Shown here one piece after another: positions 10,411 through 50,886 of a stretch of DNA of 57,660 nucleotides (the stretch's first letter is position 1; every line of letters begins with the position of its first letter). The position numbers and the translations under genes are program-made. Source of the DNA: an uncultured Bacilli bacterium (lineage in GTDB: Bacteria; Bacillota_I; Bacilli_A; RF39; UBA660); assembly GCA_947632455.1 (NCBI GenBank), contig CANRPK010000006.1, positions 1 through 57,660 of the forward strand, read 5' to 3'. The notes under the pieces are model-generated. The model searched no databases. It was not told the origin of the DNA and saw only the letters and a list, made by a program, of their open reading frames with translations.

Positions 10411-11922
10411 TTATATGCTTGTTTTTACTACAAATGGATTATCAGATTTACCAGTACCTCCACTAAATTCAATATCAGCTCTTAAATTAACTACTGGACG
10501 CACACCATGAGTGCCATACATGCCCGCACCGCGAAAGAAGTCATCACTACGCACAAGGAACACGTCAGCCCAACCATCGACATTATAGCGAGAGGGAGAC
10601 ATTGTCCAATAATATTGGTTAGTATATAGCCAGTAGTTAGTTCCTACTGTTCCTCCGAAAGCACCTGTCATTACTACCTCATCACTTGTGATTAAGCCTA
10701 CTGGATTTGTAAGTATTTCATTACCTCTACCTGAACCAGAAGTTGTGAATAAATCTCTTTTGAATGCCTTTGCATCTATTTTATCAAAAGAACTAAATCC
10801 ATCCACATCTGTTGGATCTTCTTCAGGCATTACTACTCCACACTTTAATGTTGGATATTGATTTGTTCTCCAAGCTCCGCCTTTGGCAATCAACCTTGAT
10901 GCTGGCGCATATCCACTTGCAGACTGTCCTGTACCATCGCCATTGTAATTATTCCAATTTCCTTTTACTACTACTCTATCATTACACCATCCTGTACTCC
11001 CACTTAAATATTTAGTATATTCTGACATTGCTCCTGTTTCAGTATACCATCCATGAACAGCTTTTGCTATATCACTAGGAGTAGAGTTGGAATGAGTTTC
11101 TTCATAACTTGGATTTGGTTTTTCATCTGTGTGGGCTGTTCCATAATAATATCCTACATAGGTATTATCACTATATGATGTAGGTTTATAAGCAGAAGTT
11201 AAAGCGTTAGTTTCAATTCCTTCAGTTATCTCGCAATTTGGTTCTGCACATTGGAATATTAACCTTAATGTTCCATCTCCATTTATTCTGATTATTCTCC
11301 ATGTATGATTTGCAAATGTTACCCAATTATTTACATCATTATTATTTCCTCTAAACACATAACTGGTTCCATAATTGTCTGGACTGGTATATAATTTTTC
11401 TTTTCCTTCAGGATTTTCTGTATTTTCATTATATGGACCTGTGATTGGATTTGGCATGGCATCTATTGTATATTTACTTCCTTTTGAAGTTTCCAATTTG
11501 CCTAACATTTCTTTTACTAAACTATCAAAATATATATAACACTTTGTTCCTTTTTCGGTTAAATTTAAAACATTTATAACATTATTTTTATATTCTATTT
11601 CTACTTCTTCTATTGGTTCACCATTTACTTCACAATAACTATCTTCACTTAGTTTATATCCTATTGTAGGTATCTTATTTATACTTACATATTCCTTTTC
11701 TTCTTTAGTACTATCGTCTTTTTCTTGATACATTGCTATTATATTTAAATCTGCCTTATTATAACTTATATTTCCACTTGCTAGTTCTATACTTTCTGTA
11801 TTTCGATATCTTGCTAAACTTGTTATATAGTTTATTACTATTACTAGTCCTATGGTTAGTAATATCCCTATTATTATTCCCTTTACTTTGGAGGTATTAT
11901 CCTCCAACTTTTCTAATTTCAT
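10411..11922 (-). CDS. Secreted hypervariable protein, paralog 1 (putative DGR target with CLec-like C-terminus)
   Basis: N-terminal TM then TSLARY; WRIIRINGDG; YWTMSP-[variable]-GVRPVVNL; three paralogs in the window. Confidence 0.75.
   Translation of the reverse strand: MKLEKLEDNTSKVKGIIIGILLTIGLVIVINYITSLARYRNTESIELASGNISYNKADLNIIAMYQEKDDSTKEEKEYVSINKIPTIGYKLSEDSYCEVNGEPIEEVEIEYKNNVINVLNLTEKGTKCYIYFDSLVKEMLGKLETSKGSKYTIDAMPNPITGPYNENTENPEGKEKLYTSPDNYGTSYVFRGNNNDVNNWVTFANHTWRIIRINGDGTLRLIFQCAEPNCEITEGIETNALTSAYKPTSYSDNTYVGYYYGTAHTDEKPNPSYEETHSNSTPSDIAKAVHGWYTETGAMSEYTKYLSGSTGWCNDRVVVKGNWNNYNGDGTGQSASGYAPASRLIAKGGAWRTNQYPTLKCGVVMPEEDPTDVDGFSSFDKIDAKAFKRDLFTTSGSGRGNEILTNPVGLITSDEVVMTGAFGGTVGTNYWLYTNQYYWTMSPSRYNVDGWADVFLVRSDDFFRGAGMYGTHGVRPVVNLRADIEFSGGTGKSDNPFVVKTSI
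10497..10597 (-). repeat. Variable region VR1
   Basis: GC-rich ~100-nt block; differs from sister copies mainly at codon positions 1-2. Confidence 0.75.
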
Positions 11923-12078: not shown

Positions 12079-12531
12079 ATGCTATATGAACGATTAAGAT
12101 TTATACGAGAACAGCACGAAATGACACAAACAGACTTAGCTAAAAAATTAGGCATTACAAAATCAGGATACTGCCGATATGAAAATGAAACAGATATTAT
12201 ACCTATTAAACACTTAATCATAATATCTGATACTTTTAATGTACCAATAGATTACATTTTTTCTCTTACTAATACCCTTCAATATGAAAATACCAATAAA
12301 GGAATAAACCAACAACTATCAGGCCAAAGATTAAAAACTTTTCGCAAAGATGCAAAATTTACTCAAGAAAAATTAGCTGAAATTTTAAATGTAGCTAGAA
12401 CAATAATATCAAAGTATGAAAAAGGAGAATACCCAATAGCTACACATACCCTATACACAATTTGCAAAAAATATAATATCTCTGCCGATTATCTATTAGG
12501 AAAAATAGACACTCCTAAATATTTAAAATAA
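12079..12531 (+). CDS. Tandem double XRE-HTH transcriptional regulator
   Basis: Two HTH_3-like repeats (RLRFIREQHEMTQTDLAKKLG; RLKTFRKDAKFTQEKLAEIL). Confidence 0.85.
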   Translation: MLYERLRFIREQHEMTQTDLAKKLGITKSGYCRYENETDIIPIKHLIIISDTFNVPIDYIFSLTNTLQYENTNKGINQQLSGQRLKTFRKDAKFTQEKLAEILNVARTIISKYEKGEYPIATHTLYTICKKYNISADYLLGKIDTPKYLK

Positions 12532-12612: not shown

Positions 12613-14127
12613 TTATATATTTGTTTTTACTACAAATGGATTATTAGATTTACCAGTACCTCCACTAAATTCAATATCAGCATTTAGATTTATTACTGGA
12701 CGCACACCAGAAAGGCTATGCACACCAGCGGTGTGGATGTTACCAGCTGCAAGCACATCGAACACGGCTGCCCAACCTTCGGGATAATTGTGAACTGGAG
12801 ACATTGACCAATAATATTGGTTTGTGTATAACCAATAATTAGTAGAAGTTGTACCTCCAAAGCCTCCTGCCATCACTACTTCATCAACCATAATTAATCC
12901 TACTGGATTTGGAAGTACTCCGTTACCTCTATTTGAGCCGATAGTCGTAAATAAATCCCTTTTTAAAGCTACTGGATCTATTTCATTAAAACTACTAAAG
13001 CCTTCTTCTTCTGAAGGATTTGTTTCTGGCATTTCTACTCCACATTTTAAAGTTGAATATTGAGTTTTCCTCCAAGAATTCTTTGCAAATAACCTTGCTG
13101 ATGGGGCATATCCTGTTCCACTTTGTCCAGTTCCATCTCCGGTGTAATTATTCATAACGTTTTTAACTACGGTTCGATCATTACACCATCCTGTATTTCC
13201 ACTTAAATATTTAGTATAATTGGTCATTGCCCCTATTCCAGTATACCAACTATCAACAGCTTTGGCTATATCACTAGGAGTGGAATTTGAATGAGTTTCT
13301 TCATATGTTGGATCTTCTTCACCTTTATCTGCTTTGGATGTTCCATAATAATATCCTACATAGGTGTTATCATCATTTGGTACAGACTTATAAGCAATGC
13401 CATCTACAGCGTTTGTGGTTGTTCCTGTTGTTTCTGTACAATTTGGTGTTGCACATTGGAATATCATTCTTAATGTGCCATCTCCATTTATCCTGATTAT
13501 CCTCCATGTATGATTGGCAAATGTTACCCAATTATTTACATCATTATTATTTCCTCTAAATACATAACTTGTTCCATAATTATCTTCGGTTGTATATATC
13601 TTCTCTTTTCCTTCGGGATTTTCTGTACTCTCATCATATGGTCCTGAGAATGAGTTAGGCATAGCTGTTTTTTCATATGTACTTTGTTTTATTGTTTCTA
13701 ATTTTGCTAACATATCTTCGGCTTTATAATCTAAGTCAAAATATATATAACATTTCGTTCCTCTTTTTTTAATATTTCCTACATATATTGCTCCTTCTCT
13801 ATATTCAATTTGAGCATCTTCTACTTTTTGATTACTAACTTCACAATAACTTTTATTACTTAATGTATATTTTTCAGTTGGTACATCATCTATTTGTTTA
13901 TAGCCATTTGTGCTATAACTACTTTCTTGGTACATCGCTATTATATTTAAATCTGCTTTATTATAACTTATATTCCCACTTGCTAGTTCTATACTTTCTG
14001 TATTCCTATATTTTGCTAGGCTTGTTATGTAATTTATTACTATTACTAATATTATTGCTAATATAAATCCTACTACAAATATTGTTTTATTTCTTTTACT
14101 ATCTGTATCTAACCTTTCTATTTTCAT
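12613..14127 (-). CDS. Secreted hypervariable protein, paralog 2 (putative DGR target)
   Basis: Same architecture as paralog 1; YWSMSP-[variable]-GVRPVINL. Confidence 0.75.
   Translation of the reverse strand: MKIERLDTDSKRNKTIFVVGFILAIILVIVINYITSLAKYRNTESIELASGNISYNKADLNIIAMYQESSYSTNGYKQIDDVPTEKYTLSNKSYCEVSNQKVEDAQIEYREGAIYVGNIKKRGTKCYIYFDLDYKAEDMLAKLETIKQSTYEKTAMPNSFSGPYDESTENPEGKEKIYTTEDNYGTSYVFRGNNNDVNNWVTFANHTWRIIRINGDGTLRMIFQCATPNCTETTGTTTNAVDGIAYKSVPNDDNTYVGYYYGTSKADKGEEDPTYEETHSNSTPSDIAKAVDSWYTGIGAMTNYTKYLSGNTGWCNDRTVVKNVMNNYTGDGTGQSGTGYAPSARLFAKNSWRKTQYSTLKCGVEMPETNPSEEEGFSSFNEIDPVALKRDLFTTIGSNRGNGVLPNPVGLIMVDEVVMAGGFGGTTSTNYWLYTNQYYWSMSPVHNYPEGWAAVFDVLAAGNIHTAGVHSLSGVRPVINLNADIEFSGGTGKSNNPFVVKTNI
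12699..12799 (-). repeat. Variable region VR2
   Basis: Aligns with VR1/3/4; shares a 24-nt exact match with the orphan copy at 31709-31812. Confidence 0.7.
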
Positions 14128-14276: not shown

Positions 14277-14759
14277 GTGGATTTAAGCAATACCTTAAAA
14301 AAGTTTTTTGAAGAAATAAAAGTAGTTCAAAACATAACCGCAACAAGCATTGCCAATTCTTTAAACATTTCCAAAAAAACCTTATCTAATTACATAAATG
14401 GAGATGCTTACATCCCACTTGAACATCTAAATACCATTAGTAACATTTTAAATATCTCTGTTGATTATATATTAGAATTATCTGACATAAAGCTACCCAA
14501 AAAAATCAAAAAAATCGATAATCTAAATGCTATCGATATTGGTACAAGACTAAAAAGTATTAGAAAAGAATTAAAACTAACCCAAGAAGAACTAGCTAAA
14601 ACTATTGGTATCAATAAATCTAGTATTAGCAAATATGAAAGTGGTAAAAATCTTATTCTTACCATATCTCTTTATACAATATGTAAAAAATATAATATCT
14701 CTGCCGATTATTTATTAGGTAAAACCGATAAACCTATTTATTTAAAAGAAACCAATTAG
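14277..14759 (+). CDS. Tandem double XRE-HTH transcriptional regulator
   Basis: Two HTH repeats; C-terminal LYTICKKYNISADYLLGK shared with 12079-12531. Confidence 0.85.
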   Translation: MDLSNTLKKFFEEIKVVQNITATSIANSLNISKKTLSNYINGDAYIPLEHLNTISNILNISVDYILELSDIKLPKKIKKIDNLNAIDIGTRLKSIRKELKLTQEELAKTIGINKSSISKYESGKNLILTISLYTICKKYNISADYLLGKTDKPIYLKETN

Positions 14760-26789: not shown

Positions 26790-27213
26790 CTTCCTTTACA
26801 TCTTTTTTCACAAATTTTGTTTTAATTGGTAACTTATAACTAGCAAGTCTTAAAGCTTCTCTAGCTGTTGCTTCATCAACGCCACCAATTTCAAACATAA
26901 TCTTTCCTTCTTTAACTACAGCTACCCAATCTTCTACATTACCTTTTCCTGTTCCTTGACGAGTTTCAAGAGGTTTTTTTGTAATGGCTAAGTGTGGGAA
27001 AATATTGATCCAAACTCTACCACCACGTTTCATGTAACGAGTCATTGCGATACGAGCAGCCTCTATTTGACGAGCTGAAATCCAAGCCCCTTGTTTAGCT
27101 TGAAGACCATACTCTCCAAAATGAAGTTCAGTATTTCCTCTAGCATGACCATCATAAGTTAATCTATGTGGTTTTCTATATTTGGTCTTCTTTGGCATTA
27201 ACATGAGCTCCAT
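26770..27213 (-). CDS. rplP: 50S ribosomal protein L16
   Basis: [23 protein letters not shown]. Confidence 0.96.
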
Positions 27214-27859
27214 CTCCTCTCATCATCTTTTTAGCTGGTAGAATTTCATCTTTATAAATCCAAACTTTTACTCCTATTTTTCCATAAGTAGTATCAGCTT
27301 CAGCTATAGCGTAATCTACATCAGCTCTAATTGTATGAAGTGGTACAGTTCCTTCAGTATATCCTTCAGTACGAGCCATTTCTGCTCCACCTAATCTTCC
27401 AGATACACTAGTTTTAATACCTTTAGCTCCAGCTTTCATTGTATTTCTAATTGCTCTTTTTTGTGCACTTCTAAATGGTGCTCTAGCTTCAATTTGTGAA
27501 GCAATATTTTGCGCAACTAATTTAGCATTTAAATCTGGATTTTTAACTTCAACGATATTAACATATACATCTTCATCAACTAATTTTTTAATATCTTTTC
27601 TTAATTTTTCGATGTCTTCTCCGCCTTTACCAATAATTACACCAGGCTTAGCAGTATTAATTGTTACATCAATTCTATTTTTCTTACGTTCAATAACAAT
27701 ACTAGCAACTGCAGCATCTTTTAATTTTTTCTCAAGATATTCTCTAATTTTAATATCTTTATTTAAAGTAGCAGCATAATCTTTATTCGCATACCATTTA
27801 GATTCCCAATCTTTATTAACACCAAGTCTAAAACCTATTGGATTAACTTTTTGTCCCAT
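27176..27859 (-). CDS. rpsC: 30S ribosomal protein S3
   Basis: [21 protein letters not shown]. Confidence 0.97.
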
Positions 27860-28209
27860 TATGCTTCCTCCTTAACTTTACCATCACTAACTTTAATAGT
27901 TATATGACTTGTTCTTTTATCTCTTCTATCAACATTTCCACGGCTAGCAAATTTAATTCTTTTATAAACTTGTCCCGGATTAATATAGCACTCACTAATT
28001 CTTAATTCTTCTTCTTTAGCACCATTATTATTAACTGCATTAGCTATAGCACTGTTAAGAACTTTAAGAATTAATCTTGCTGCTTTAGTATTAGTATTTT
28101 CTAAAATACCTTGAGCAGTTTGTACATCTTTACCACGGATTAAATCTAATGTCATTCTAGCTTTTCTAGGGGCAATCATAGCTCCCTTATGTATTGCATA
28201 AGCTTCCAT
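27859..28209 (-). CDS. rplV: 50S ribosomal protein L22
   Basis: APRKAR, SAIANA, TSHIT. Confidence 0.95.
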
Positions 28210-28220
28210 TTATTTACCTC

Positions 28221-28493
28221 CTACTTTTGTCCTGCATGGCCACCAAACTTACGAGTCATTGAAAACTCTCCAAGTTTATGTCCTACCATATCTTCTGTAA
28301 TATAAACAGGAATAAATTCCTTTCCATTATGAACAGCAATAGTATGTCCTACAAAATCAGGAAAAATAGTTGAACGACGTGACCAAGTTTTAATAACTTC
28401 TTTTTTGCCAGTCTTATTTAATTCTTGAACCTTCTTAAGTAATCTATCGAAAACATAAGGTCCTTTCTTTAAACTTCTTGCCATTTTACTCAC
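28221..28493 (-). CDS. rpsS: 30S ribosomal protein S19
   Basis: [24 protein letters not shown]. Confidence 0.97.
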
Positions 28494-29324
28494 CTATTTG
28501 TTCTTTCTACTAACAATTAACTTGCTAGAAGCTTTTTTATTTTTTCTTGTCTTATAACCAAGTGCTGGTTTACCCCAAGGTGTCATTGGACTCTTACGTC
28601 CTACTGGAGTACGTCCTTCACCACCACCATGAGGGTGATCATTAGGGTTCATAACAGATCCACGGTTTGTAGGTCTAATTCCCATATGACGTTTACGTCC
28701 AGCTTTTCCTAAATTAACAAGTTCGTAATCTTCATTACCAACTACTCCTATAGTAGCCATACATGCTCCAAGAACTTTTCTAGTTTCACCACTTTGAAGA
28801 CGAAGAATAACATATTTACCATCACGGCCTAATATTTGAGCACTAGCTCCCGCACTTCTTGCCATCTCAGCACCTTTACCAGGCTTAAGTTCTATACAAT
28901 GTACTACTGTACCTACTGGAATAACTTCAAGAGGTAAAGCATTACCAACTTTAATATCTGCATCACGACCATTTTCAATGATCATGCCAACTTCTAATCC
29001 TTTAGGAGCTATAATATATCTTTTTTCACCATCTAAATAGTTAATTAAAGCTATATTAGCACTTCTGTTTGGATCGTATTCAATACTTGCTACTCTACCA
29101 GTAACATTTGTTTTGTTTCGCTTATAATCAATTAAACGGTATTTTCTTTTTGCTCCGCCACCAATATGACGAACAGTTAACTTACCTTGATTATTTCTAC
29201 CACCAGTTTTAATTTTAGTTTTTGTTAAACTTTTTGTAGGAGTACTAGTAGTTATCTCTTCATTAACAAGTGTAGTCATTCCCCTACGTCCATTAGTAGT
29301 AGGTTTAAATTTCTTAATAGCCAT
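28494..29324 (-). CDS. rplB: 50S ribosomal protein L2
   Basis: [17 protein letters not shown]. Confidence 0.98.
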
Positions 29325-29337
29325 AACTTACGCCTCC

Positions 29338-29616
29338 TTATAATTCAATATTAGAGTTTTTATCTAAGGTAACAATCGCTTTTTTATAAGTTTTAGTTTT
29401 ACCTGTATATCTTCCAACTCTTCTATCTTTAGCTTTTGTATTTAATGTATTTACACTTAATACTTTAACTCCAAATGCTTTTTCAATCGCTTTTTTAATT
29501 TGTGATTTATTAGCTGTATCAGCTACTTTAAATGTATATACATTATCTTTTTGCATTTTATTTGCACTTTTTTCAGTAATAACTGGTGAATAAATAATAT
29601 CTGTATAATCTTTCAT
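29338..29616 (-). CDS. rplW: 50S ribosomal protein L23
   Basis: PVITEKS, KKAIVTL. Confidence 0.96.
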   Translation of the reverse strand: MKDYTDIIYSPVITEKSANKMQKDNVYTFKVADTANKSQIKKAIEKAFGVKVLSVNTLNTKAKDRRVGRYTGKTKTYKKAIVTLDKNSNIEL

Positions 29617-30236
29617 TATTTAAGCACCTCCTCGATTTTTTGGATAGCTTCTTCGGTAATTACAAGAACATCAGCATTTACGATATCTAAAGCATTGATA
29701 TCTTCACTCATAATATGATAAGCATATCCTAAATTTTTTGTAGCCATATATAAATTTTCATTTTCATCTTTAGTTACAAATAATACTTTTCCTTCAAGTT
29801 TTAAACTTTTAATTAATTCTTTAACTTCTTTAGTTTTTAAACTCTCAAGTTTTAAACTATCTAATACTACTAACTCTTTATCTTGAGCTTTATGTGATAA
29901 AGCACTCTTTAAAGCTAGTACTCTTTCTTTTCTATTAATATCAAAAGTATAATCGCGAGGGCTGATTGCATGAACCATACCGCCGCCTCTCCATTGAGGA
30001 GCACGTGTACTACCTTGACGAGCACGTCCAGTACCTTTTTGTTTCCAAGGCTTTCTTCCTCCTCCAGAAACTTCACCACGATTTTTAGCTTTTGCTGTAC
30101 CTTGACGAGTAGCATCAAGTTGTAATCTAATCATCTTTTTTAAAACTAAATCATTAGCTTCAATATTCCAAACACTGTCTTTTAAAGTTAAATCTTTAAC
30201 TTCTTCACCAGCGATATTTTTAACTTTTACTTTCAT
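29616..30236 (-). CDS. rplD: 50S ribosomal protein L4
   Basis: KPWKQKGTGRARQGS. Confidence 0.97.
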   Translation of the reverse strand: MKVKVKNIAGEEVKDLTLKDSVWNIEANDLVLKKMIRLQLDATRQGTAKAKNRGEVSGGGRKPWKQKGTGRARQGSTRAPQWRGGGMVHAISPRDYTFDINRKERVLALKSALSHKAQDKELVVLDSLKLESLKTKEVKELIKSLKLEGKVLFVTKDENENLYMATKNLGYAYHIMSEDINALDIVNADVLVITEEAIQKIEEVLK

Positions 30237-30258
30237 TTTTCGAATTCCTTTCTAAAAA

Positions 30259-31056
30259 CTAATTGTTTTCTCCTGGATTTTCGGAAGCAGTTTCTGTTTC
30301 TGTAGTCTCTTCAGTTACTTCTTCAACAGTTGTAACTTCTTCATTATTGCTTTCTTCAGTAACTTCACTTGGTGCCTCAACTACTTCATCAACAACAGTC
30401 TCATAAGTTAAAATTTCTTTTGGTGCTTTCTTTTTAGAATTTTTAACTGCTGTTTTAATTAATACTAATGAATTTTTTGCTCCCGGAATATTGCCACTAA
30501 CTAAAATATAGTTTTCATTTTCATTAACTTCAATAACTTCCAAATTTTGAATAGTAACAGTTTCTACACCCATATGTCCAGATAAATGTTTACCTTTTAA
30601 AACTCTTTTTGGAAGCATTGTTCCCATAGATCCTGGTCTTCTGTGATACATTGAACCATGAGTTTCAGGTCCTCTAGATTGATTATAACGTTTAATAACT
30701 CCAGTAAAACCTTTACCTTTGCTAGTACCTGTAACGTCAATAATATCCCCTACTTCAAACAAACTTGCGCCTATTGTATCACCAACGTTATAAGTTCCCT
30801 CATAATCTCTGATTTCCTTTAAGAAGCGCTTAGGAGTTGTGTTTGCTTTCTTAGCTCTACCAATTTCTGCCTTAGTAGCTCTTTTTTCTTTTTTCTCAAA
30901 TACGCCTAATTGAATAGCATTATAGCCATCAGACTCTTTAGTTTTAACTTGCATTACAGTATTAGGAGCAACCTCAACAACTGTAACAGGAATTAACTTA
31001 CCATCTTTAGAAAAAACTTGAGTCATTCCGAGCTTACGCCCTAAGATTCCTTTCAT
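30259..31056 (-). CDS. rplC: 50S ribosomal protein L3 with acidic C-terminal extension
   Basis: [14 protein letters not shown]; ~50-aa Glu/Thr-rich tail. Confidence 0.96.
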
Positions 31057-31075
31057 TTTTTAATCCTCTTTTCTA

Positions 31076-31384
31076 TTATAATTTTATATCAATGTCAACA
31101 CCACTAGGTAAATCTAAATGAGTTAAAGCATCAATAGTTTCTTTACTTGGGTTTTTAATATCTACAAGTCTTTTATGAGTACGCATTTCAAATTGTTCAC
31201 GTGCATCTTTATATTTGTGTACCGCTCTTAAAACAGTATATTTTTGAACTTCTGTTGGAAGTGGTACAGGTCCAGATATTTCCCCACCTGTTCTTTTTAC
31301 AGTTTCTACAATTTTTAAAGCCGCAGTATCAAGAAGTCTATGATCATAAGCTTTTAAATTGATTCTAACTTTTGTATTTGACAT
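31076..31384 (-). CDS. rpsJ: 30S ribosomal protein S10
   Basis: [17 protein letters not shown]. Confidence 0.97.
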
Positions 31385-31548
31385 TATTCATGTCCTCCTT
31401 TCGCCTATATCTAGTATAGACTTGCATCCGTCCGAATTAACCTGATAGTAGATTTGAATGAAACAACCAACCCTAGCGTATCAGCAACCTCGTACATCCA
31501 AGCCAGTCATACGCAATAAATTATATCAATATATTCTATGAACGTCAA
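31385..31548 (-). promoter_or_regulatory. S10 operon promoter and GC-richer 5' leader
   Basis: TTGACG(31548-31543)-17-TATAAT(31525-31520); ~130-nt leader richer in GC than typical intergenic DNA; AAGGAGG RBS. Confidence 0.65.
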
Positions 31549-31567
31549 GTAAAAATTAGCATTTAAA

Positions 31568-31619
31568 TAAAAAAAATGCTGTTATAATCGCAGGTTATCT
31601 AACCTACAATATCAGCATT
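31568..31619 (-). terminator. Rho-independent terminator closing the region downstream of paralog 3
   Basis: Minus strand AATGCTG..TTGTAGGTTA GA TAACCTGCGA..CAGCATT followed by a T-run. Confidence 0.7.
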
Positions 31620-31708
31620 AAATATTAAAGTCTAAAACTAAGGACTAATCTTAGAACCAATTCTAACTATATTTAGTCTTAACCAAATATTTGAGTAAAA
31701 AGGTTATT

Positions 31709-31812
31709 GACGCACACTAAGACCAGTGTTACCCACGTGCGCAGCGCCGAGGATGCCATCATTATACACATCGAACACGGCTGCCCAACCATCGACCCAA
31801 TAGTGAAGCGGA
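31709..31812 (-). repeat. Orphan non-coding VR-like copy
   Basis: 104 nt TCCG...GTGTGCGTC aligning with VR1-4 only across the VR; flanks non-homologous; in-frame stops on both sides. Confidence 0.8.
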
Positions 31813-31844
31813 TCAAAAATACGTGCCTAGATTAACCCTGAAAA

Positions 31845-32081
31845 ATGCTTCCTCACGTGATACAACCCACGTGAAGAAAATGCAAAGTCGACAACAAACG
31901 TTGCCGACTATACCTGTCTTCAAAATATTATCTTGCAAAAATACTTTTGCAAATTTGGATATAATTCTTATATATAACTTTGGTGAGGCAGGTCCAAAAT
32001 GAAGAGTCATTTTGAACCACCAACACTACACTCCTTGAAGTGTCACTTTATTCGTAGTCTCACCTTAATGCGACTACGAAT
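31845..32081 (-). ncRNA. Candidate structured RNA (cluster of about six hairpins)
   Basis: Inverted repeats at 31849-31878, 31886-31909, 31933-31952, 31991-32018, 32028-32043 and 32050-32081; imperfect positions are G.U pairs on the minus strand. Confidence 0.5.
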
Positions 32082-33604
32082 GGACTACTAGATTTACCAT
32101 TACCTCCTGAGAATGTTGTATCAGCCTTCAGATTAACTACTGGACGCACACCATAAGCGGCACCAACGCCCGCACCCCAGAAGCGGCCATCAGTACGCAC
32201 ATCGAACACGCTAGCCGTCTTAACATCGACATCATAGCTCCACGGAGACATTGTCCAATAGTATTGGTTAGTATATAGCCAGTAGTTAGTTCCTACTGTT
32301 CCTCCAAATCCTCCAGCCATAGCAACTTCATCACTTGTAATAAGCCCTACTGGATTTGTAAGTACTTCATTACCTCTGCCTGAGTTTTTTGTTGTGAATA
32401 AATCTCTTTTGAATGCCTTTGCATCTATTTCATCAAAACTAGTAAATCCTTCTTCTTCAGTTGGGTCTGTTTCGGGCATTACAACACCGCACTTTAATGT
32501 TGGATATTGTTTTTTTCTCCAAGCTCCGCCTTTGGCAATCAATCTTGATGCTGGTGCATATCCACTTGCACTTTGACCTGTACCATCGCCATTGTAATTA
32601 TTCCAATTTCCTTTTACTACTACTCGATCATTACACCATCCTGTACTTCCATCTAGATAATCAGTATAATTTGTCATTGCTCCTGTTCCGCTATACCAAT
32701 TATCAACAACCGTAGCTATATTACTAGCAGTAGCATTTGAGTGGACTTCATCATAAGGTGGAGTTGGTTTTTCATCCGAATGCGCTGTTCCATAATAATA
32801 TCCGACATAAGTGTTGTCATCATATGGAGCTGGCTTATAAGCAGTTCCACCTACAGCGTTTGTAGTTGCTCCTTCAGTAGTTGTACAATTTGTAGTTGCA
32901 CATTGGAATATCATTCTTAATGTTCCATCTCCATTTATTCTGATTATTCTCCATGTATGCCCAGCAAAATTGACCCAGTTATTTACATCTTCATTGTTAC
33001 CTCTAAAGACATAACTAACTCCATAATTATCTGGGCTGGTATATAATTTCTCTTTTTTTTCGGGATTTTCTACATCTGCATTATATTGTCCAGTTATTGG
33101 GCTTGGCATTTTATCTATGGTATAGTTACTTTTCTTCACAGCCTCAAGTTTAGCAAGCATATCCTTAGCTGGAGCAAATTCATCAAGATAAATATAGCAT
33201 TTTGTATTGCTCTTGTTAACACCACTAAATGTTAAACTAAAACCATTATAATCTACACTTACTGTATTATCGCTATCAGAACCATAAACTTTTTGCTGTC
33301 CAACCTCACAATATGATTGGCCATTAATTTTATAATTACCGATTGGTACATCTTCTCTACCATAATCTCCTGTAAGCGTTCCATATTCATCTACATGCTT
33401 AACATTAACAGCAAGTAAATTAAAATCAGCTAGTGAAAAATTTACAGTACCTGATGCTAACTCAATACTTTCTGTATTTCTATACTTAGCATAGGAAAAA
33501 CATAAAGTAAGAACACCAACTAGAACAACGGCAAACAAGGAAATACCTAGGCTTAAACGTTTCCAAAACCTTTTTTTCCCTGACGATAATGTTTCAAATT
33601 TCAT
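32060..33604 (-). CDS. Secreted hypervariable protein, paralog 3 (putative DGR target)
   Basis: TM then SYAKYRNTESIELASG; YWTMSP-[variable]-GVRPVVNL; divergent N-terminal domain. Confidence 0.75.
   Translation of the reverse strand: MKFETLSSGKKRFWKRLSLGISLFAVVLVGVLTLCFSYAKYRNTESIELASGTVNFSLADFNLLAVNVKHVDEYGTLTGDYGREDVPIGNYKINGQSYCEVGQQKVYGSDSDNTVSVDYNGFSLTFSGVNKSNTKCYIYLDEFAPAKDMLAKLEAVKKSNYTIDKMPSPITGQYNADVENPEKKEKLYTSPDNYGVSYVFRGNNEDVNNWVNFAGHTWRIIRINGDGTLRMIFQCATTNCTTTEGATTNAVGGTAYKPAPYDDNTYVGYYYGTAHSDEKPTPPYDEVHSNATASNIATVVDNWYSGTGAMTNYTDYLDGSTGWCNDRVVVKGNWNNYNGDGTGQSASGYAPASRLIAKGGAWRKKQYPTLKCGVVMPETDPTEEEGFTSFDEIDAKAFKRDLFTTKNSGRGNEVLTNPVGLITSDEVAMAGGFGGTVGTNYWLYTNQYYWTMSPWSYDVDVKTASVFDVRTDGRFWGAGVGAAYGVRPVVNLKADTTFSGGNGKSSSPFVVALR
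32143..32246 (-). repeat. Variable region VR3
   Basis: Aligns with the other VRs; one extra codon. Confidence 0.72.
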
Positions 33605-33664
33605 TTATTTTTAACTCCTTTCTTTAAAACACTTACTTCCTTATTCTTCCTAAATATATCATAA

Positions 33665-33671
33665 TTCGACA
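33665..33671 (-). promoter_or_regulatory. Candidate Spo0A box
   Basis: TGTCGAA on the minus strand, ~60 nt upstream of the paralog 3 start. Confidence 0.4.
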
Positions 33672-33776
33672 AAAAAGTCTACTATTTATAGAACTTTTTT
33701 TAAAAGTTCTATTATTTGTGTTAGTAACTTTAAAACGATTGGGAATTATAATTAAAATGTAGTAGGTGGTAGTATC

Positions 33777-34220
33777 ATGAGGTTTAATCGAAACGACGAA
33801 AACTACGTTTACGGTTTTGTTGGAAAAAATATAAAAAAATACCGTAAAATGCAAGGTTTAACCCAGGATGAACTTGCGTCATTAGTAAATTATTCGCCTT
33901 CTTTTATAGCCAATATTGAGTCATCCACACACCAAACTTTTTCCTTAGGAGCCTTATGGCGCATTGCCACTGCCCTAGGTGTTAGCCTTCATGAAATATG
34001 TTATGATAACAACAAATTAGGAAGTGCAAATAATATGAATAGTGTCCTATATATCTGTGATAGTTGTTCCAATACTATCGATATGCCTATAGAAGTAGTC
34101 GATGTTTTCGAATTTATTTACGCAGTTGGTAAAAGTAAAGAACTATACCCAACATTTACTTGCCCCAAATGTGGTGGAAAACTTATTCCTAAAAAAAATG
34201 ATCCCCTCGACAAAATGTGA
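33777..34220 (+). CDS. XRE-HTH regulator with C-terminal zinc ribbon
   Basis: NIKKYRKMQGLTQDELA; CDSC...CPKC. Confidence 0.8.
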   Translation: MRFNRNDENYVYGFVGKNIKKYRKMQGLTQDELASLVNYSPSFIANIESSTHQTFSLGALWRIATALGVSLHEICYDNNKLGSANNMNSVLYICDSCSNTIDMPIEVVDVFEFIYAVGKSKELYPTFTCPKCGGKLIPKKNDPLDKM

Positions 34221-34265
34221 CAAAATATTCCTCTTTAATATGTTAGTATTAAATTGTGATGAATT

Positions 34266-34649
34266 ATGAACGACATACAATTATATAATGAAATAGGAAA
34301 AAATATTAAAAAAGCTCGCCGAAGTCTCGGAATTACGCAAGAAAAATTAGCCGAAATAACTAATTATTCTTTATCTTTTATAGCCAATATTGAAAGTAAT
34401 ACTTACCAAACTTTTTCTGTAAGTGCCATAAATAATATTGCTAAAGCCCTAAATACTAGCATTACTAACTTATTACCAAAAAATCCCATCATAGATGAAC
34501 CTTTAGTAATTAAATGTTTAAAATGTAATTACAATATAACTTTACCAACTGAATTAGATAAATTACTTAATAATATTCAAGAAATGACCAATAAAAAAAT
34601 AAGACTTACATGTCCTATTTGTCATCAAAAAATAAATGTTGATATCTAA
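34266..34649 (+). CDS. XRE-HTH regulator with C-terminal zinc ribbon
   Basis: NIKKARRSLGITQEKLAE; CLKC...CPIC; paralog of the preceding gene. Confidence 0.8.
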   Translation: MNDIQLYNEIGKNIKKARRSLGITQEKLAEITNYSLSFIANIESNTYQTFSVSAINNIAKALNTSITNLLPKNPIIDEPLVIKCLKCNYNITLPTELDKLLNNIQEMTNKKIRLTCPICHQKINVDI

Positions 34650-35718
34650 TTATTTTAAATTCAAAACACTTTTTATTAAAGGTAAAATATCTCCATCTAA
34701 AACCTTTAATGGATCAGCATCTTCATATTTACTGCGATGATCTTTTACTAATTTATAAGGTTCCAGTATATAACTTCTAATTTGACTTCCAAAATTAATA
34801 TTACTTACATCTCCAGTAATATTTTTTATTTCATTATTTTTAGCTTCTTCTAATTGTTGATAAAGTTTATTACGTAAAAGTTCCATAGCTATTTCTTTAT
34901 TTCTAAGTTGACTTCTTTCTGTTTGACAGGTAACAACCGTTTTCGTTGGCAAATGTGTTATTCTAACCGCCGAATTTGACGTATTTACTGATTGTCCACC
35001 CGCGCCACTAGAATGATATACATCAATTTTTAAATCTTCATCTCTAATTTCAATATTAGCCGTTTCACTAAATTCTGGTGTAACATTTACTGAGGCAAAA
35101 GATGTATGTCTTCTTTTATTAGCATCAAAAGGCGAAATTCTTACTAATCTATGAACTCCATGTTCTGTTTTTAAATAACCATAAGGATTATCTCCCGTAA
35201 TATATAAAGTTACACTTTTTATTCCTGCTTCTTCCCCAGCTTGTTTATCTATAACCTTATATATATATCCATTTTGTGTTAAAAATCTTTCATACATTCT
35301 AAGTAACATGCTTGCCCAATCACAAGACTCTGTTCCACCCGCCCCAGGATGAATTTCTAAATAACAATTATTACTATCGTATTTTCCCTTTAATAAAGTC
35401 TTAATTTCTAAATCTTCTATTTGTTTTTTAACTTTTAAAATTTCATCATCATTTATATCTTCAATGTTAATAAGTTCTAAAAGTAAAGAAACACTATCTA
35501 CAATATCATTATAAGTTGTAATTTCTTTAATAATATTTTTATATTGTTGATAAGTATTATTAGCTAAGGATAAATCATTCCAAAAATCTGGTTTATTAAC
35601 TATTTCTTCTAATCTCTTTTTTTCTAGTATTTTATTATCTATGTCAAAGAGACCTCCCAATATCTTTTACTCTTTTATTTAAATCATTAAGTAAACTTAG
35701 TTTTTCTTTTTGATCCAT
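34650..35718 (-). CDS. prfB: Peptide chain release factor 2, programmed +1 frameshift
   Basis: ATG at 35718 reads MDQKEK...IGRSL then CTT TGA C (35649-35643), preceded by internal SD GGGAGG; downstream frame has SPF and GGQ motifs. Confidence 0.96.
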
Positions 35719-35771
35719 ATTTATCTCTCCAAATTTTATATTCTAATTATATCATACAATACTTAATTATC

Positions 35772-36380
35772 CTATAATTTTCTTGATCTTATCTTAAGTT
35801 TATTATTAAATTTATTTTTTATTTCTTCTATATCTATTCCCATATCATATAATTCATATCCTGTATCTATATTAAAAACAAAATAAGAACTATATGCTAT
35901 TCTCGGTAAAATTACATAAGAACTATTATTTATATTTAATAATACATTAGGAATATTTGCTTCTTCTAAAGATATATTATCTAATACTTGATAAAAATTA
36001 GTTCCCGCCTCAAACTTTAAAACAATCGGCATATATTTTTCACCACGATAATTTTTAGCATAAGGATTTCCTAAATAAAAATGCATTACCACATATACAT
36101 CTTCTCCATCTAAACTTTCCCATTGTTCAAAAGCAAAATCATCAAGTATTTGACCTTCTTCTTCATAAGTATTTCCTTTAAAACTTAAAGCCAAATTCTC
36201 TTTTCTTAACCAATCTTTAACTCCATATATTCCATCTTTAATATATTCTTTAGGTATACCTATTTCATAATCTTCTAAATAATCTAAAATTATATTTGTT
36301 GGTACTATCAAAGTATCTAAACTTTTTCTATCCAAATCCAAATGTTCTCTTACTATATTTAAAGTTTTAATGTTTTCCAT
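35772..36380 (-). CDS. Hypothetical protein
   Basis: 202-aa ORF closely coupled to the upstream ORF. Confidence 0.6.
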   Translation of the reverse strand: MENIKTLNIVREHLDLDRKSLDTLIVPTNIILDYLEDYEIGIPKEYIKDGIYGVKDWLRKENLALSFKGNTYEEEGQILDDFAFEQWESLDGEDVYVVMHFYLGNPYAKNYRGEKYMPIVLKFEAGTNFYQVLDNISLEEANIPNVLLNINNSSYVILPRIAYSSYFVFNIDTGYELYDMGIDIEEIKNKFNNKLKIRSRKL

Positions 36381-49368: not shown

Positions 49369-50886
49369 ATGAAAATAGAAAGATTAGATACAGATAGTAA
49401 AAGAAATAAAACAATATTTGTAGTAGGATTTATATTAGCAATAATATTAGTAATAGTAATAAACTATATAACTAGTTTAGCAAGATATAGGAATACAGAG
49501 AGTATAGAACTGGCAAGTGGAAATATAAGTTATAATAAAGTAGATTTAAATATAATCGCAATGTATCAAGAAAGTAGTTATAGCACAAATGGTTATAAAC
49601 AAATAGATGATGTACCAACCGAAAAATATACATTGAGTAATAAAAGTTATTGTGAAGTAAATGGCGAACCCATAGAAGATGTAAATATAAATTATGAAGA
49701 AGGTTCATTAGGTGTAACAAATATCAAAAAAAGAGGAACAAAATGTTATATATATTTTGACTTAGATTATAAAGCAGATGATATGTTAGCAAAATTAGAA
49801 GCAATAAAACAAAGTGAATATACCATAGATGAAATGCCAAACCCAATTACTGGAATGTACAACGAACAAGAAGAAAACCCAGAAGGAAAAGAAAAATTAT
49901 ATATCAGTCCAGATAATTATGGAACCAGTTATGTGTTTAGAGGCAACAATGATGATGTAAATAACTGGATAACATTTGCCAATCATACATGGAGAATAAT
50001 CAGAATAAATGGCGATGGCACATTAAGATTAATATTTCAATGTGATAAACCAAATTGTGAAATAACAGAAGGGGCAGAAACTAATGCTTTAACTTCTACA
50101 TATAAATCAGAACCATATGACGATAATACCTATGTCGGCTACTATTATGGAACAGCCAAAGCAGATAAAGGAGATACTGGAGATCCAACATATAGCGAAG
50201 CACATTCCAACTCTACACCTAGTAATGTAGCAAAAGCTGTCGATGGCTGGTATACTGGAACAGGAGCCATGACAAATTATACAAACTATCTAGATGGAAG
50301 TACAGGATGGTGTAATGATAGAGTAGTAGTTACTAAAGTCTGGAATGGATATGAAAGCGATGGTACAGGACAGTCTGCAAGTGGATATGCCTCAGCTTCA
50401 AGGTTGATTGCCAAAGGTGGAGTTTATAGAACAAAACAATATCCAACATTAAAATGTGGGGTTGTAATGCCTGAAGAAGATCCAACAGATGTAGAAGGAT
50501 TTAGCAATTTTGATGAAATAGATACTAATGCTTTAAAAAGAGATTTATTTACTACCAAAAACTCAGGTAGAGGTAACGAAATACTTACAAATCCAGTAGG
50601 TTTAATTACTAGTGATGAAGTCGCTATGGCTGGAGGCTTTGCAGGAACAGCAGGAACTAGCTATTGGTTATATACTAACCAATATTATTGGACAATGTCT
50701 CCGTATCACTATTATCTCGATGGTTGGTCAAGCGTGTTCGATGTGTATGGTGATGGCGGCCTCTGGGGTGCGCGCGTGTATTACCCTCTTGGTGTGCGTC
50801 CAGTAGTTAATCTGAAGGCTGATATTGAATTTACAAGTGGAACAGGAGCATCTTCTAATCCATTCGTAGTAAAAACAAACATATAA
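49369..50886 (+). CDS. Secreted hypervariable protein, paralog 4 (putative DGR target)
   Basis: N-terminus nearly identical to paralog 2; YWTMSP-[variable]-GVRPVVNL. Confidence 0.75.
   Translation: MKIERLDTDSKRNKTIFVVGFILAIILVIVINYITSLARYRNTESIELASGNISYNKVDLNIIAMYQESSYSTNGYKQIDDVPTEKYTLSNKSYCEVNGEPIEDVNINYEEGSLGVTNIKKRGTKCYIYFDLDYKADDMLAKLEAIKQSEYTIDEMPNPITGMYNEQEENPEGKEKLYISPDNYGTSYVFRGNNDDVNNWITFANHTWRIIRINGDGTLRLIFQCDKPNCEITEGAETNALTSTYKSEPYDDNTYVGYYYGTAKADKGDTGDPTYSEAHSNSTPSNVAKAVDGWYTGTGAMTNYTNYLDGSTGWCNDRVVVTKVWNGYESDGTGQSASGYASASRLIAKGGVYRTKQYPTLKCGVVMPEEDPTDVEGFSNFDEIDTNALKRDLFTTKNSGRGNEILTNPVGLITSDEVAMAGGFAGTAGTSYWLYTNQYYWTMSPYHYYLDGWSSVFDVYGDGGLWGARVYYPLGVRPVVNLKADIEFTSGTGASSNPFVVKTNI
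50700..50800 (+). repeat. Variable region VR4
   Basis: 101 nt, ~54% GC by manual count; aligns with the other VRs. Confidence 0.75.

Follow-up and report, generated by a model that had tools for sequence, protein, structure and literature searches.

A probable stand-alone template RNA gene of a multi-template, trans-acting diversity-generating retroelement upstream of the S10 operon of an uncultured Bacilli bacterium

The window analysed here, i.e. the whole stretch of 57,660 nt of contig C6 (CANRPK010000006.1, assembly GCA_947632455.1), stems from an uncultured Bacilli bacterium whose AT-rich genome of 1.54 Mb is distributed over 126 contigs and 94.5% complete. On the minus strand of the window, a hairpin-rich block of 514 nt (31568-32081) is bounded by the stop codon of a gene termed paralog 3 and by the S10 ribosomal-protein operon. 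The original prediction regarded this block as one element of about 500 nt, namely a candidate undescribed structured RNA with an orphan variable repeat (VR) as cargo. We found that it consists of two modules instead. Module B, the one next to the S10 operon, is with a probability of roughly 80% a stand-alone template RNA gene belonging to a diversity-generating retroelement (DGR), composed of a 5' box, a template repeat (TR), a scaffold and a terminator, and is one of 26 such genes in the genome. The system as a whole is a multi-template, trans-acting DGR and represents a new organisation of a known system. In the following, contigs of the same genome are denoted by C and other genomes by G, each followed by a number.

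A family of template cassettes

If the 514 nt are compared with the own genome by BLAST, about 25 further copies are found, only of positions 31605-31812, which comprise the VR-like segment and its 3' flank. A covariance model of the scaffold (CM R1) detects 26 copies. Thus the block does not form a single element; its two modules have different distributions. Arrays with a period of approximately 300 nt are located on C20 (22610-26016, 12 BLAST hits, running into the contig end), C35 (131-1648, six hits, at the contig start) and C9 (30501-31281, three hits), and single or double copies on C37, C38 and C10. In total, three of the arrays stop at a contig end. The arrays contain no open reading frame (ORF) of at least 80 aa. 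Two neighbouring units on C20 (24939-25111 and 25243-25415) carry identical cargo (100% over 115 nt), which points to a recent tandem duplication inside the array. Besides, arrays adjoin core translation operons: C35:1-4685 lies downstream of the tuf/fusA region, and C6:31076-31850 holds one cassette upstream of the S10 operon. Cassettes occur up to 1.5 kb upstream of rpsJ at 11 of 30 loci in the genus, in either orientation and in one to four copies.

An alignment of 25 units of this genome (alignment A1) gave the following order: a -10 box and, after 5-7 nt, the 5' box GGGTTAATCT; then a leader that varies and measures about 15 nt, followed by GTCTCCG, by 105-115 nt of VR-like sequence and by GGTGTGCGTCCAATATCC; and finally the conserved scaffold (about 110 nt) and a terminator. 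The TATAAT-type -10 box just upstream of the 5' box is present in 19 of the 25 units, 14 of which also show a TGn motif, and the T-run of the two-tier terminator hairpin is present in 20. The copy in the window and the VR of paralog 3 comprise these features:

31569-31838, minus strand: cassette (module B), whole unit
31829-31838, minus strand: 5' box GGGTTAATCT, the 5' strand of helix P1
31708-31812, minus strand: template-repeat-like segment, in frame and stop-free, about 15-16% A, two AAY codons
31625-31707, minus strand: spacer-like scaffold, matched by CM R1 over the full model length
31702-31707 with 31653-31658, minus strand: helix P2
31672-31687, minus strand: P3 hairpin
31642-31651, minus strand: 3' strand of P1, AGATTAGTCC
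31625-31642, minus strand: weak P4 region, then A-rich sequence
31569-31619, minus strand: two-tier intrinsic terminator, outer stem AATGCTG/CAGCATT, inner stem GTAGGTTA/TAACCTGC, T8
32142-32251, minus strand: VR of paralog 3, from ATGTCTCCG to GGTGTGCGTCC

That the whole 514 nt nevertheless form one RNA, e.g. a long structured 3' untranslated region (UTR) of paralog 3 that delivers a VR-like cargo, is quite improbable. It is true that the stop codon of paralog 3 is followed directly by all the parts, without a change of strand, that the cassette of the window lacks a promoter of its own and that the order paralog, module A (the upstream hairpin block), cassette is kept in several species. However, two terminator-like hairpins stand between the parts, and module A is single-copy, whereas the cassette recurs 25 more times without it, mostly with its own promoter and in many cases in arrays far from paralogs. 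In the relative G006, a TGaTATAAT promoter even lies between module A and the cassette.

RNA fold and covariation

The minus-strand RNA of the 514 nt folds with a minimum free energy (MFE) of -165.6 kcal/mol, compared to -121.3 ± 5.5 kcal/mol for 100 dinucleotide shuffles (z = -8.06), none of which folded as well. The plus strand reaches -118.6 kcal/mol (z = -6.0). The advantage of 47 kcal/mol for the minus strand agrees with the earlier argument that G.U pairs imply an RNA co-oriented with paralog 3: in each of the three stems quoted for it, the single imperfect position is G.U or U.G on the minus strand, as read by eye. Likewise, the nested stems and the terminator postulated downstream were recovered at about 31642-31690 and, as a hairpin with a T-run, at 31569-31619. 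No Rfam family matched anywhere in the window at its gathering score. A permissive scan of 31380-32200 delivered chance-level matches only (E up to 5: NBR2, WLE3 and the S10-Clostridia leader), none of them on the cassette.

In the RNAalifold prediction for the aligned cassettes, the 5' box forms a long-range helix of 10 bp, P1, with AGATTAATCC of the scaffold, a helix that surrounds the cargo. Further predicted elements are a hairpin at the cargo's 3' end, P2 (TATCCT/AGGATA), the P3 hairpin and the terminator. The short hairpin P4 beside P1 was added to this structure by hand. Over the eight helices with 52 pairs, 91.8% of the alignment cells are paired, compared to 38-47% in controls with slid partners. 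Changes on both sides affect 23 of the 52 pairs (100 cells), compared to 9-15 pairs (17-31 cells) in the slid controls, and none of 500 shuffles reached any of the observed covariation measures. P1 is paired in 92.9% of the cells with three pairs changed on both sides, P4 is the weakest helix (74%), and 15 of the 16 terminator pairs changed on both sides across the family. In relatives, 316 of 330 P1 cells are paired in 33 units, two of them mis-assigned and five more of the 38 skipped; the first pair is GC in 12, UA in 14 and AU in three units. All seven skipped or mis-assigned units belong to a variant class with the box GGGAATATCT and the partner AGATATTTCC, by eye a compensatory swap at multiple positions. 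The flanking-RNA feature of DGR templates, i.e. a duplex around the TR followed by downstream stem-loops, is therefore present, with P1 to P4 and the terminator supported by covariation.

The cargo as template repeat

Between GTCTCCG and GGTGTGCGTCC, the VRs of 24 paralogs can be aligned with the cargo of 25 cassettes, among them the unit of the window. The cargo was previously taken for an orphan VR, but in relatives it has the properties of a TR. Their 38 cassettes from 16 genomes contain 29.7% A, distributed over codon positions 1, 2 and 3 as 50, 47 and 3% (frame-corrected). Among 34 codons, 7-14 are AAY in 37 of these 38 cassettes (example ...LNNNNVNNTNGVR), and four in the remaining one, a truncated copy in G013.

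A comparison with target genes was made in G002, whose cassettes are rich in Asn codons and for which all seven cassettes and 23 of about 30 VRs were used, each VR against its best cassette. Template adenines are mismatched at 378 of 729 positions (52%), compared to 13% for C, 17% for G and 9% for T. The direction is pronounced as well: A in the template but not in the VR was found at 378 sites, the reverse at 80. The best matches of the VRs spread over six of the seven cassettes. This pattern is the adenine-mutagenesis signature of DGRs and indicates that several templates are in use, within the limits that 9-17% of the other bases mismatch too and that some VR variants lack a template in this 91%-complete assembly.

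The reverse transcriptase operon and its distribution

Five matches to RVT_1, the reverse transcriptase (RT) domain, were detected in the genome (C29, C64, C42, C36 and C90). On C29 (4398-6322), ORFs for a MutS_I-like protein (E 5.9e-5), bAvd (3.2e-9) and RVT_1 (2.6e-20) stand together. The Avd ORF also matches NCBIfam DivGenRetAVD with 8.6e-9, below the cut-off of that model. The RT has 374 aa and the motif LPIGNMSSQ...YMDD; (I/L)GxxxSQ is the signature of DGR RTs. Its clade assignment is based on this motif and on the Avd neighbour, since the libraries used contain no DGR-specific RT model.

This operon is template-less. Near the RT of C29 neither a TR nor a VR-like sequence was found, apart from a paralog gene that ends 1.9 kb upstream. 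Within 1.5 kb of the RT, neither a cassette nor a VR-like sequence was present at any of 10 RT loci, the own genome included, and the same holds within about 5-10 kb in four genomes. A single gene VR stands near one locus. Thus the canonical arrangement of a TR beside the RT was absent from the genus loci searched, whereas it is present in the sister-genus genome G161. There, contig C66 carries, in this order, a target gene with its VR, the 5' box GGGATTATCT with an A-rich TR and a scaffold containing the partner AGGTAATTCC, Avd (127 aa) and an RT of 374 aa with the motif LPIGNMTSQ. This canonical order with the same scaffold identifies the latter as the DGR RNA of this RT clade and answers whether homologues of the element neighbour an RT. 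The genus of the window has detached this RNA and amplified it.

Of the 36 other species-representative genomes in the genus, 33 contain CM R1 matches (2-23 copies each), with more than 250 matches genus-wide, but none of 24 genomes of other genera does. In a survey of the family with one genome per genus, two of 149 other genera were positive, G161 with one match and G214 with seven weak ones. The weak matches in G214, with E between 5e-9 and 1e-5, are spread across seven contigs; at the one locus inspected, the 5' box-like TGATTAATCT follows a TGATAAAAT box, and the cargo is not obviously AAY-rich. G214 may represent a second, diverged multi-template lineage.

Intact RT orthologs (72-82% identity, no stops) were found in 23 of 43 other genus genomes searched; six genomes have the RT only with stops or as a fragment, and seven gave no match at E <= 1e-20. 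G004, G015 and G025 (92-95% complete) lack both cassettes and RT and still comprise 9-17 paralogs. We make no statistical claim on the co-occurrence of cassettes and RT, because related genomes are not independent.

Four further RTs of the genome were noticed in passing. Those on C36 (2822-4572, LGFYTSQ) and C90 (740-3013, LGVEPSQ) are of the DGR type with repeat pairs of their own nearby (105 nt at 84.8% and 128 nt at 84.4% identity, respectively), which are unrelated to the paralog family. C90, GC-richer by eye, may be a phage or contaminant contig. C64 (610-2322) encodes a group II intron-type RT/maturase of 571 aa with a QGGIISP motif, and C42 (3-1112) a second, truncated group II intron-type RT at the contig start with one in-frame TGA.

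Proposed mechanism

By analogy to the DGR RNA of the Bordetella phage, the cassettes would be transcribed into RNAs in whose fold the template is enclosed by P1, the helix of 5' box and scaffold. RT-Avd, together with the MutS-like accessory protein and encoded in trans on another contig, would bind the scaffold. The RT would then prime in cis and copy the template up to P1, with misincorporation at adenines, and the complementary DNA (cDNA) would replace the VR of any paralog with the flanks GTCTCCG ... GGTGTGCGTCC. In this way, combinatorial diversity could arise from the joint action of many different templates and adenine mutagenesis on 24-51 target genes.

Evidence against this interpretation and alternative explanations

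Several observations weigh against the interpretation as a DGR template family, most of them from the own genome. Here the adenine mismatches are nearly symmetrical (50% of cassette A, 49% of VR A) and their direction is weak (246 vs. 207 sites). The 25 cassettes contain 22% A, 0-8 AAY codons and 9% of their A at codon position 3, the VRs contain 19% A, and the best pairs of cassette and VR share 55-83% identity. Given this weak, near-symmetrical signature and the A-poor templates, the cassettes of this genome are poor predictors of its current VRs. The most similar pair is that of paralog 3 and C20:23294 (83% identity), with 13 mismatches at template A, three at VR A and three others. Other best pairs follow the expected direction (13:4, 12:6 and 11:4 for template A to VR A) or the opposite one (4:8 and 6:8). 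Some VRs resemble mosaics of cassettes, with identical stretches as long as 45 nt that leave adenines unaltered, and such mosaics would also fit plain recombination. Furthermore, cassettes are kept in genomes without a detected RT (G011, G014, G016, G035) and in genomes with only a stop-bearing or fragmentary one (G032, G009, G012, G028, G024, G036). Against a strict link of both components, the four genomes without a detected RT and several with a broken one keep 2-8 cassettes, and G019 (71% complete) has 16.

The mosaics recall the Borrelia vls, Neisseria pilS and Mycoplasma genitalium MgPar systems, in which arrays of non-coding partial surface-gene copies, corresponding to the variable part, act as recombination donors at the DNA level and the expressed copies are mosaics. 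The cassettes share with these silent copies the promoter-distal arrays of partial genes and the mosaics, but differ in their transcription signals, RNA fold, A-rich codons and cognate RT-Avd. Might they likewise be silent DNA donors that are copied into the paralogs by homologous recombination or gene conversion, without reverse transcription? In the VR of paralog 3, the 5' end corresponds to C20:24723 and a later part to C20:23294; the VR of paralog 4 begins with 45 nt identical to C20:25944, including seven unchanged adenines, and the near-symmetry described above fits as well. However, a DNA donor needs neither -10 box nor terminator nor RNA fold, whereas the former two are found in 19 and 20 of 25 units and compensatory changes preserve the fold together with the long-range helix that surrounds the cargo. 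Moreover, the mismatches in G002 are adenine-specific and directional, the adenines in relatives' cassettes avoid codon position 3, the same scaffold adjoins Avd-RT in G161, and the three cassette-free genomes are also without RT. We therefore regard pure DNA donors as very unlikely, while recombination may add to the picture in the own genome.

Within the interpretation as RT templates, the deviations of the own genome could have several possible causes: templates that are rewritten by the system itself, recombination between VRs and cassettes, templates missing in collapsed arrays, or an old system that is now slow. The first of these could be extended to a "template library" DGR, in which dozens of independently transcribed templates share one trans-acting RT-Avd-MutS-like (MSL) machinery and serve up to 51 targets, with the choice of template multiplying the adenine mutagenesis, while the templates of the own genome are rewritten and information thus flows back to the template store. 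We consider this rather unlikely. It is suggested by the A content of 22% compared to 30% in relatives, by the long exact runs between cassettes and VRs and by the differences among cassettes. Among about 600 pairs, the runs are not clearly beyond chance. Adenine is involved in 59-68% of the differences between cassettes, an enrichment relative to composition that is suggestive only, since transitions may confound it and the scaffold used as control differs in base composition. If true, a heritable and evolving template repertoire would replace the invariant TR of the textbook.

The copy in the window itself has to be judged separately, because it lacks a -10 box of its own, misses one base at a junction and contains few adenines, all of which render its activity uncertain. 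It matches CM R1 over the full model length with 116.9 bits (E 1e-22), lower than all 22 copies of the own genome listed (at least 140.6 bits), with three of the 26 copies unlisted. It might be a decaying relic, untranscribed or unused, that survives only by virtue of its place between a terminator cluster and the S10 operon, which is essential. We take this possibility seriously, although we hold it for somewhat improbable. The missing -10 box and the two terminator-like hairpins immediately upstream would fit a relic, as would the junction of TR and scaffold (GCGTC-AATAACC instead of GCGTCCAATATCC), the 5' homology GATCCG instead of GTCTCCG, the low content of adenines and AAY codons given above, and P4, which is down to three of five pairs as read from alignment A1. 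The copy is the best match of no gene VR, no VR derived from it was found, and the syntenic copy in G013, a genome without RT ortholog, is truncated with an in-frame stop. On the other hand, P1 is intact with 10 of 10 pairs, as is the P3 hairpin. P2 is changed on both strands (ATAACC/GGTTCT instead of ATATCC/GGATAC), partly as in the C10 copy, and the inner stem of the terminator still pairs in spite of an entirely different sequence. The template has an open frame with one A at codon position 3. Consistently, P2, P3, the terminator and P1 (with pair probabilities of 0.39-0.62) are all part of the MFE structure of the isolated unit, but P4 is not. Also in G002, where the RT is intact and the templates are A-rich, the cassette that directly follows module A is preceded by a T2 hairpin (the hairpin directly upstream of the 5' box) and has no -10 box. 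The promoter-less layout is thus a conserved arrangement and not a defect of the own genome.

Comparison with known systems

DGRs are usually described with one invariant template beside one RT. For the Bordetella phage BPP-1, the DGR RNA is described as the 3' end of avd, the TR and a 140-nt spacer termed Sp (Handa et al., 2018, PMC6182149). The template is reported to need upstream and downstream RNA, and the RNA envelops RT-Avd (Handa et al., 2024, bioRxiv 10.1101/2023.10.23.563531). According to the same preprint, 207 of 278 Avd-type DGRs show a stem-loop just downstream of the TR as well as a duplex of upstream and downstream RNA of 13 bp on average ("cPRT Stop"), and in some Avd-type DGRs an adjacent stem-loop is followed by adenosines (10.1101/2023.10.23.563531). 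By architecture, P1 (10 bp) resembles the cPRT Stop duplex, P2 and P3 the downstream stem-loops, and P4 with AAATAA the stem-loop with adenosines. Both systems also have an accessory protein of the Avd type and an RT that carries the (I/L)GxxxSQ motif. Since this architecture of upstream segment, TR and spacer matches that of known DGR RNA, the RNA of the window does not belong to an undescribed class. The view of a structured, DGR-related minus-strand RNA stands, while its novelty lies in the organisation. In contrast to BPP-1, the template forms a gene of its own, about 270 nt long, with -10 box and terminator outside any avd-TR-RT transcript, and it exists in up to 26 non-identical copies, many of them in tandem and far from the TR-less RT operon.

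In the DGR of Trichodesmium erythraeum, the TR accumulates as a discrete small RNA (sRNA) of 265 nt and at least 12 proteins are targeted (Pfreundt et al., 2014, as described in PMC6596454). The size of the RNA, here read from the genes alone, and the many targets of one DGR are similar, but Trichodesmium is described with a single template RNA, compared to many templates per genome and 24-51 targets in the present case. In MSL-type DGRs ("architecture D"), a small MutS-like ORF, avd and RT form one operon with the TR beside the RT (Wu et al., 2018, PMC5758913). The MutS_I-like, bAvd and RVT_1 ORFs of C29 correspond to this arrangement, except that no TR was present near the RT in the loci searched.

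For Treponema denticola, the occurrence of several TRs within human oral metagenome samples has been remarked (PMC4891356). Our search of the main texts of a limited literature collection, aimed at DGRs with more than one template or at arrays of templates, yielded no description of the present organisation. DGR detection pipelines search for repeats in the vicinity of the RT (Roux et al., 2021, PMC8144416), and such RT-centred approaches probably miss templates as remote as these.

The cassettes might also bring retrons to mind. The retron msr-msd is a stand-alone structured RNA used by an RT, in which 5' and 3' inverted repeats close the reverse-transcribed part. However, retrons differ from the DGR found here by another RT clade and by the lack of Avd, of homing into a target gene and of adenine mutagenesis.

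What is unusual is that in a genus of small-genome gut bacteria (1-1.5 Mb) the template has been detached from its RT, turned into a self-contained small RNA gene and amplified in arrays that would serve 24-51 surface-protein genes. If active, the system would add a second, combinatorial layer of diversification through the choice of templates and through mosaics, and would explain the "recombining mosaic" surface-protein families of these genomes. Template-less DGR RTs in surveys may then have remote templates too. The combination of a trans-acting RT with portable template cassettes would furthermore be a compact natural design, of interest for engineered targeted mutagenesis. The A-poor templates of the own genome raise the question whether templates are protected from, or subject to, their own mutagenesis.

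The upstream hairpin block

Module A was recovered much as predicted: six stem-loops stand on the minus strand between paralog 3 and the VR-like segment, and all those named in the original prediction were located at the positions given for them.

about 31849-32081, minus strand: module A, about 230 nt, non-coding, single-copy in the own genome
31886-32049, minus strand: core of module A with the hairpins 32028-32043, 31991-32018, 31933-31952 and T1
32050-32081, minus strand: hairpin 0, ATTCGTAGTC/GACTACGAAT, overlapping the stop codon of paralog 3
32028-32043, minus strand: stem-loop ACACT/AGTGT
31991-32018, minus strand: stem-loop GGTTCAAAATGA-CTCT-TCATTTTGGACC
31933-31952, minus strand: stem-loop TTGCAAAA/TTTTGCAA
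31886-31909, minus strand: stem-loop T1, AGTCGGCAAC-GTTT-GTTGTCGACT, terminator-like in the scan
31849-31878, minus strand: stem-loop T2, TTCTTCACGTG...CACGTGAGGAA, directly upstream of the cassette 5' box
31925-31952, minus strand: promoter-like TTGCAA-N16-TAATAT, unreported by the consensus promoter scan

As anticipated, paralog 3 parts from its siblings within the first hairpin arm, just after CCATTCGTAGT, and lacks their common GCCTATAC...GTATAGGC stem-loop, which is a terminator. However, the block does not replace a usual 3' end, as had been proposed, because the odd end of paralog 3, the hairpin at its stop codon and the hairpin block are all conserved in synteny in other species. Module A shares 80-90% identity over at least 140 nt with 16 relatives and lies between a 3' end of the paralog 3 type and cassettes upstream of rpsJ, as judged from the coordinates in G002, G006, G017, G021, G023 and G030. 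Its stems are mostly invariant (five of 55 predicted pairs with double changes), with T1 covarying from U-A to C-G. Hairpin 0 is kept with different sequences in G002, G006, G066 and G021, where compensation was read by eye. T2 stands where most cassettes carry their -10 box; relatives have a CTCACGG/CCGTGAG hairpin (G002), a CGCAG/CTGCG hairpin (G013) or the TGaTATAAT promoter (G006) at this position. Most probably, module A would act either as a 3'-UTR/terminator cluster of paralog 3 or as a leader/attenuator for the first cassette.

A coding function was considered and rejected: both the minus-strand ORF of 65 aa (31813-32010) and a shorter frame preceded by a Shine-Dalgarno sequence are interrupted by indels of 1 and 2 nt in relatives. 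Separately, several relatives contain additional short copies, with 82-98% identity, of the first ~50 nt of module A (ACACT/AGTGT and the beginning of the GGTTCAAAATGA hairpin), e.g. at G013:C25:7368-7417, at G023:C2:39215-39253 and twice on G066:C4.

The target protein family

Paralog 3, a target gene of the DGR in the present interpretation, encodes a membrane-anchored protein of 514 aa with a putatively C-type-lectin-like C-terminal part and is one of 38 loci found by tblastn in the own genome. Its AlphaFold2 model (predicted local distance difference test 86.5) best matches the N-terminal domain of the Thomasclavelia ramosa IgA peptidase in VIA-align (Z 12.9). Residues ~208-493 align to many C-type lectin domains with Z 4-6.5, a range common for this tool, and the DGR protein TvpA (2y3c) gave Z 4.5 with a root-mean-square deviation of 5.3 over 132 residues. 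Foldseek with the same model revealed no match in the PDB at E <= 0.001, and the protein sequence matched nothing in Pfam or NCBIfam at E <= 0.01. Matches to the paralogs in relatives amount to 30 in G002, 51 in G006, 38 in G017 and 40 in G014, with genome sizes of 1.1-1.5 Mb, so that the family takes up several percent of the coding capacity.

Genomic setting and neighbouring genes

Four paralogs, each about 505 aa long and hypervariable in a C-terminal segment, lie in the window: three on the minus strand (10411-11922, 12613-14127 and 32060-33604) and one on the plus strand (49369-50886). A search of the window for tRNA and tmRNA genes detected none. The block under study is flanked by:

32060-33604, minus strand: coding sequence of paralog 3, from the ORF list
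31385-31548, minus strand: S10 promoter and leader, the downstream boundary, outside the element
31520-31548, minus strand: promoter of the S10 operon, TTGACG-17-TATAAT, from the promoter scan
31076-31384, minus strand: rpsJ of the S10 operon

The promoter and leader region of the S10 operon is 78-88% conserved across the genus. A sub-gathering Rfam match to the S10-Clostridia leader at 31401-31508 (15.2 bits, E 2.3) also lies outside the element. No RNA data set was listed as containing positions 27000-36000. Contigs from four runs of a single rabbit-gut DNA sample, which may be the source of the assembly, are identical to 31396-32006 with zero differences; they represent DNA only, and differences and joints over the paralog body stem from paralogs and relatives.

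Each paralog is flanked by divergently oriented genes for helix-turn-helix (XRE-like) regulators (33777-34220, 34266-34649, 12079-12531 and 14277-14759, all on the plus strand). Beside paralog 3 they form a tandem pair, both members of which carry a C-terminal, zinc-ribbon-like CxxC...CxxC tail. The adjacent ORF of prfB, encoding release factor 2 (34650-35660, minus strand), is listed only from an internal-looking TTG start, and the programmed +1 frameshift that is usual near the 5' end of prfB may occur here.

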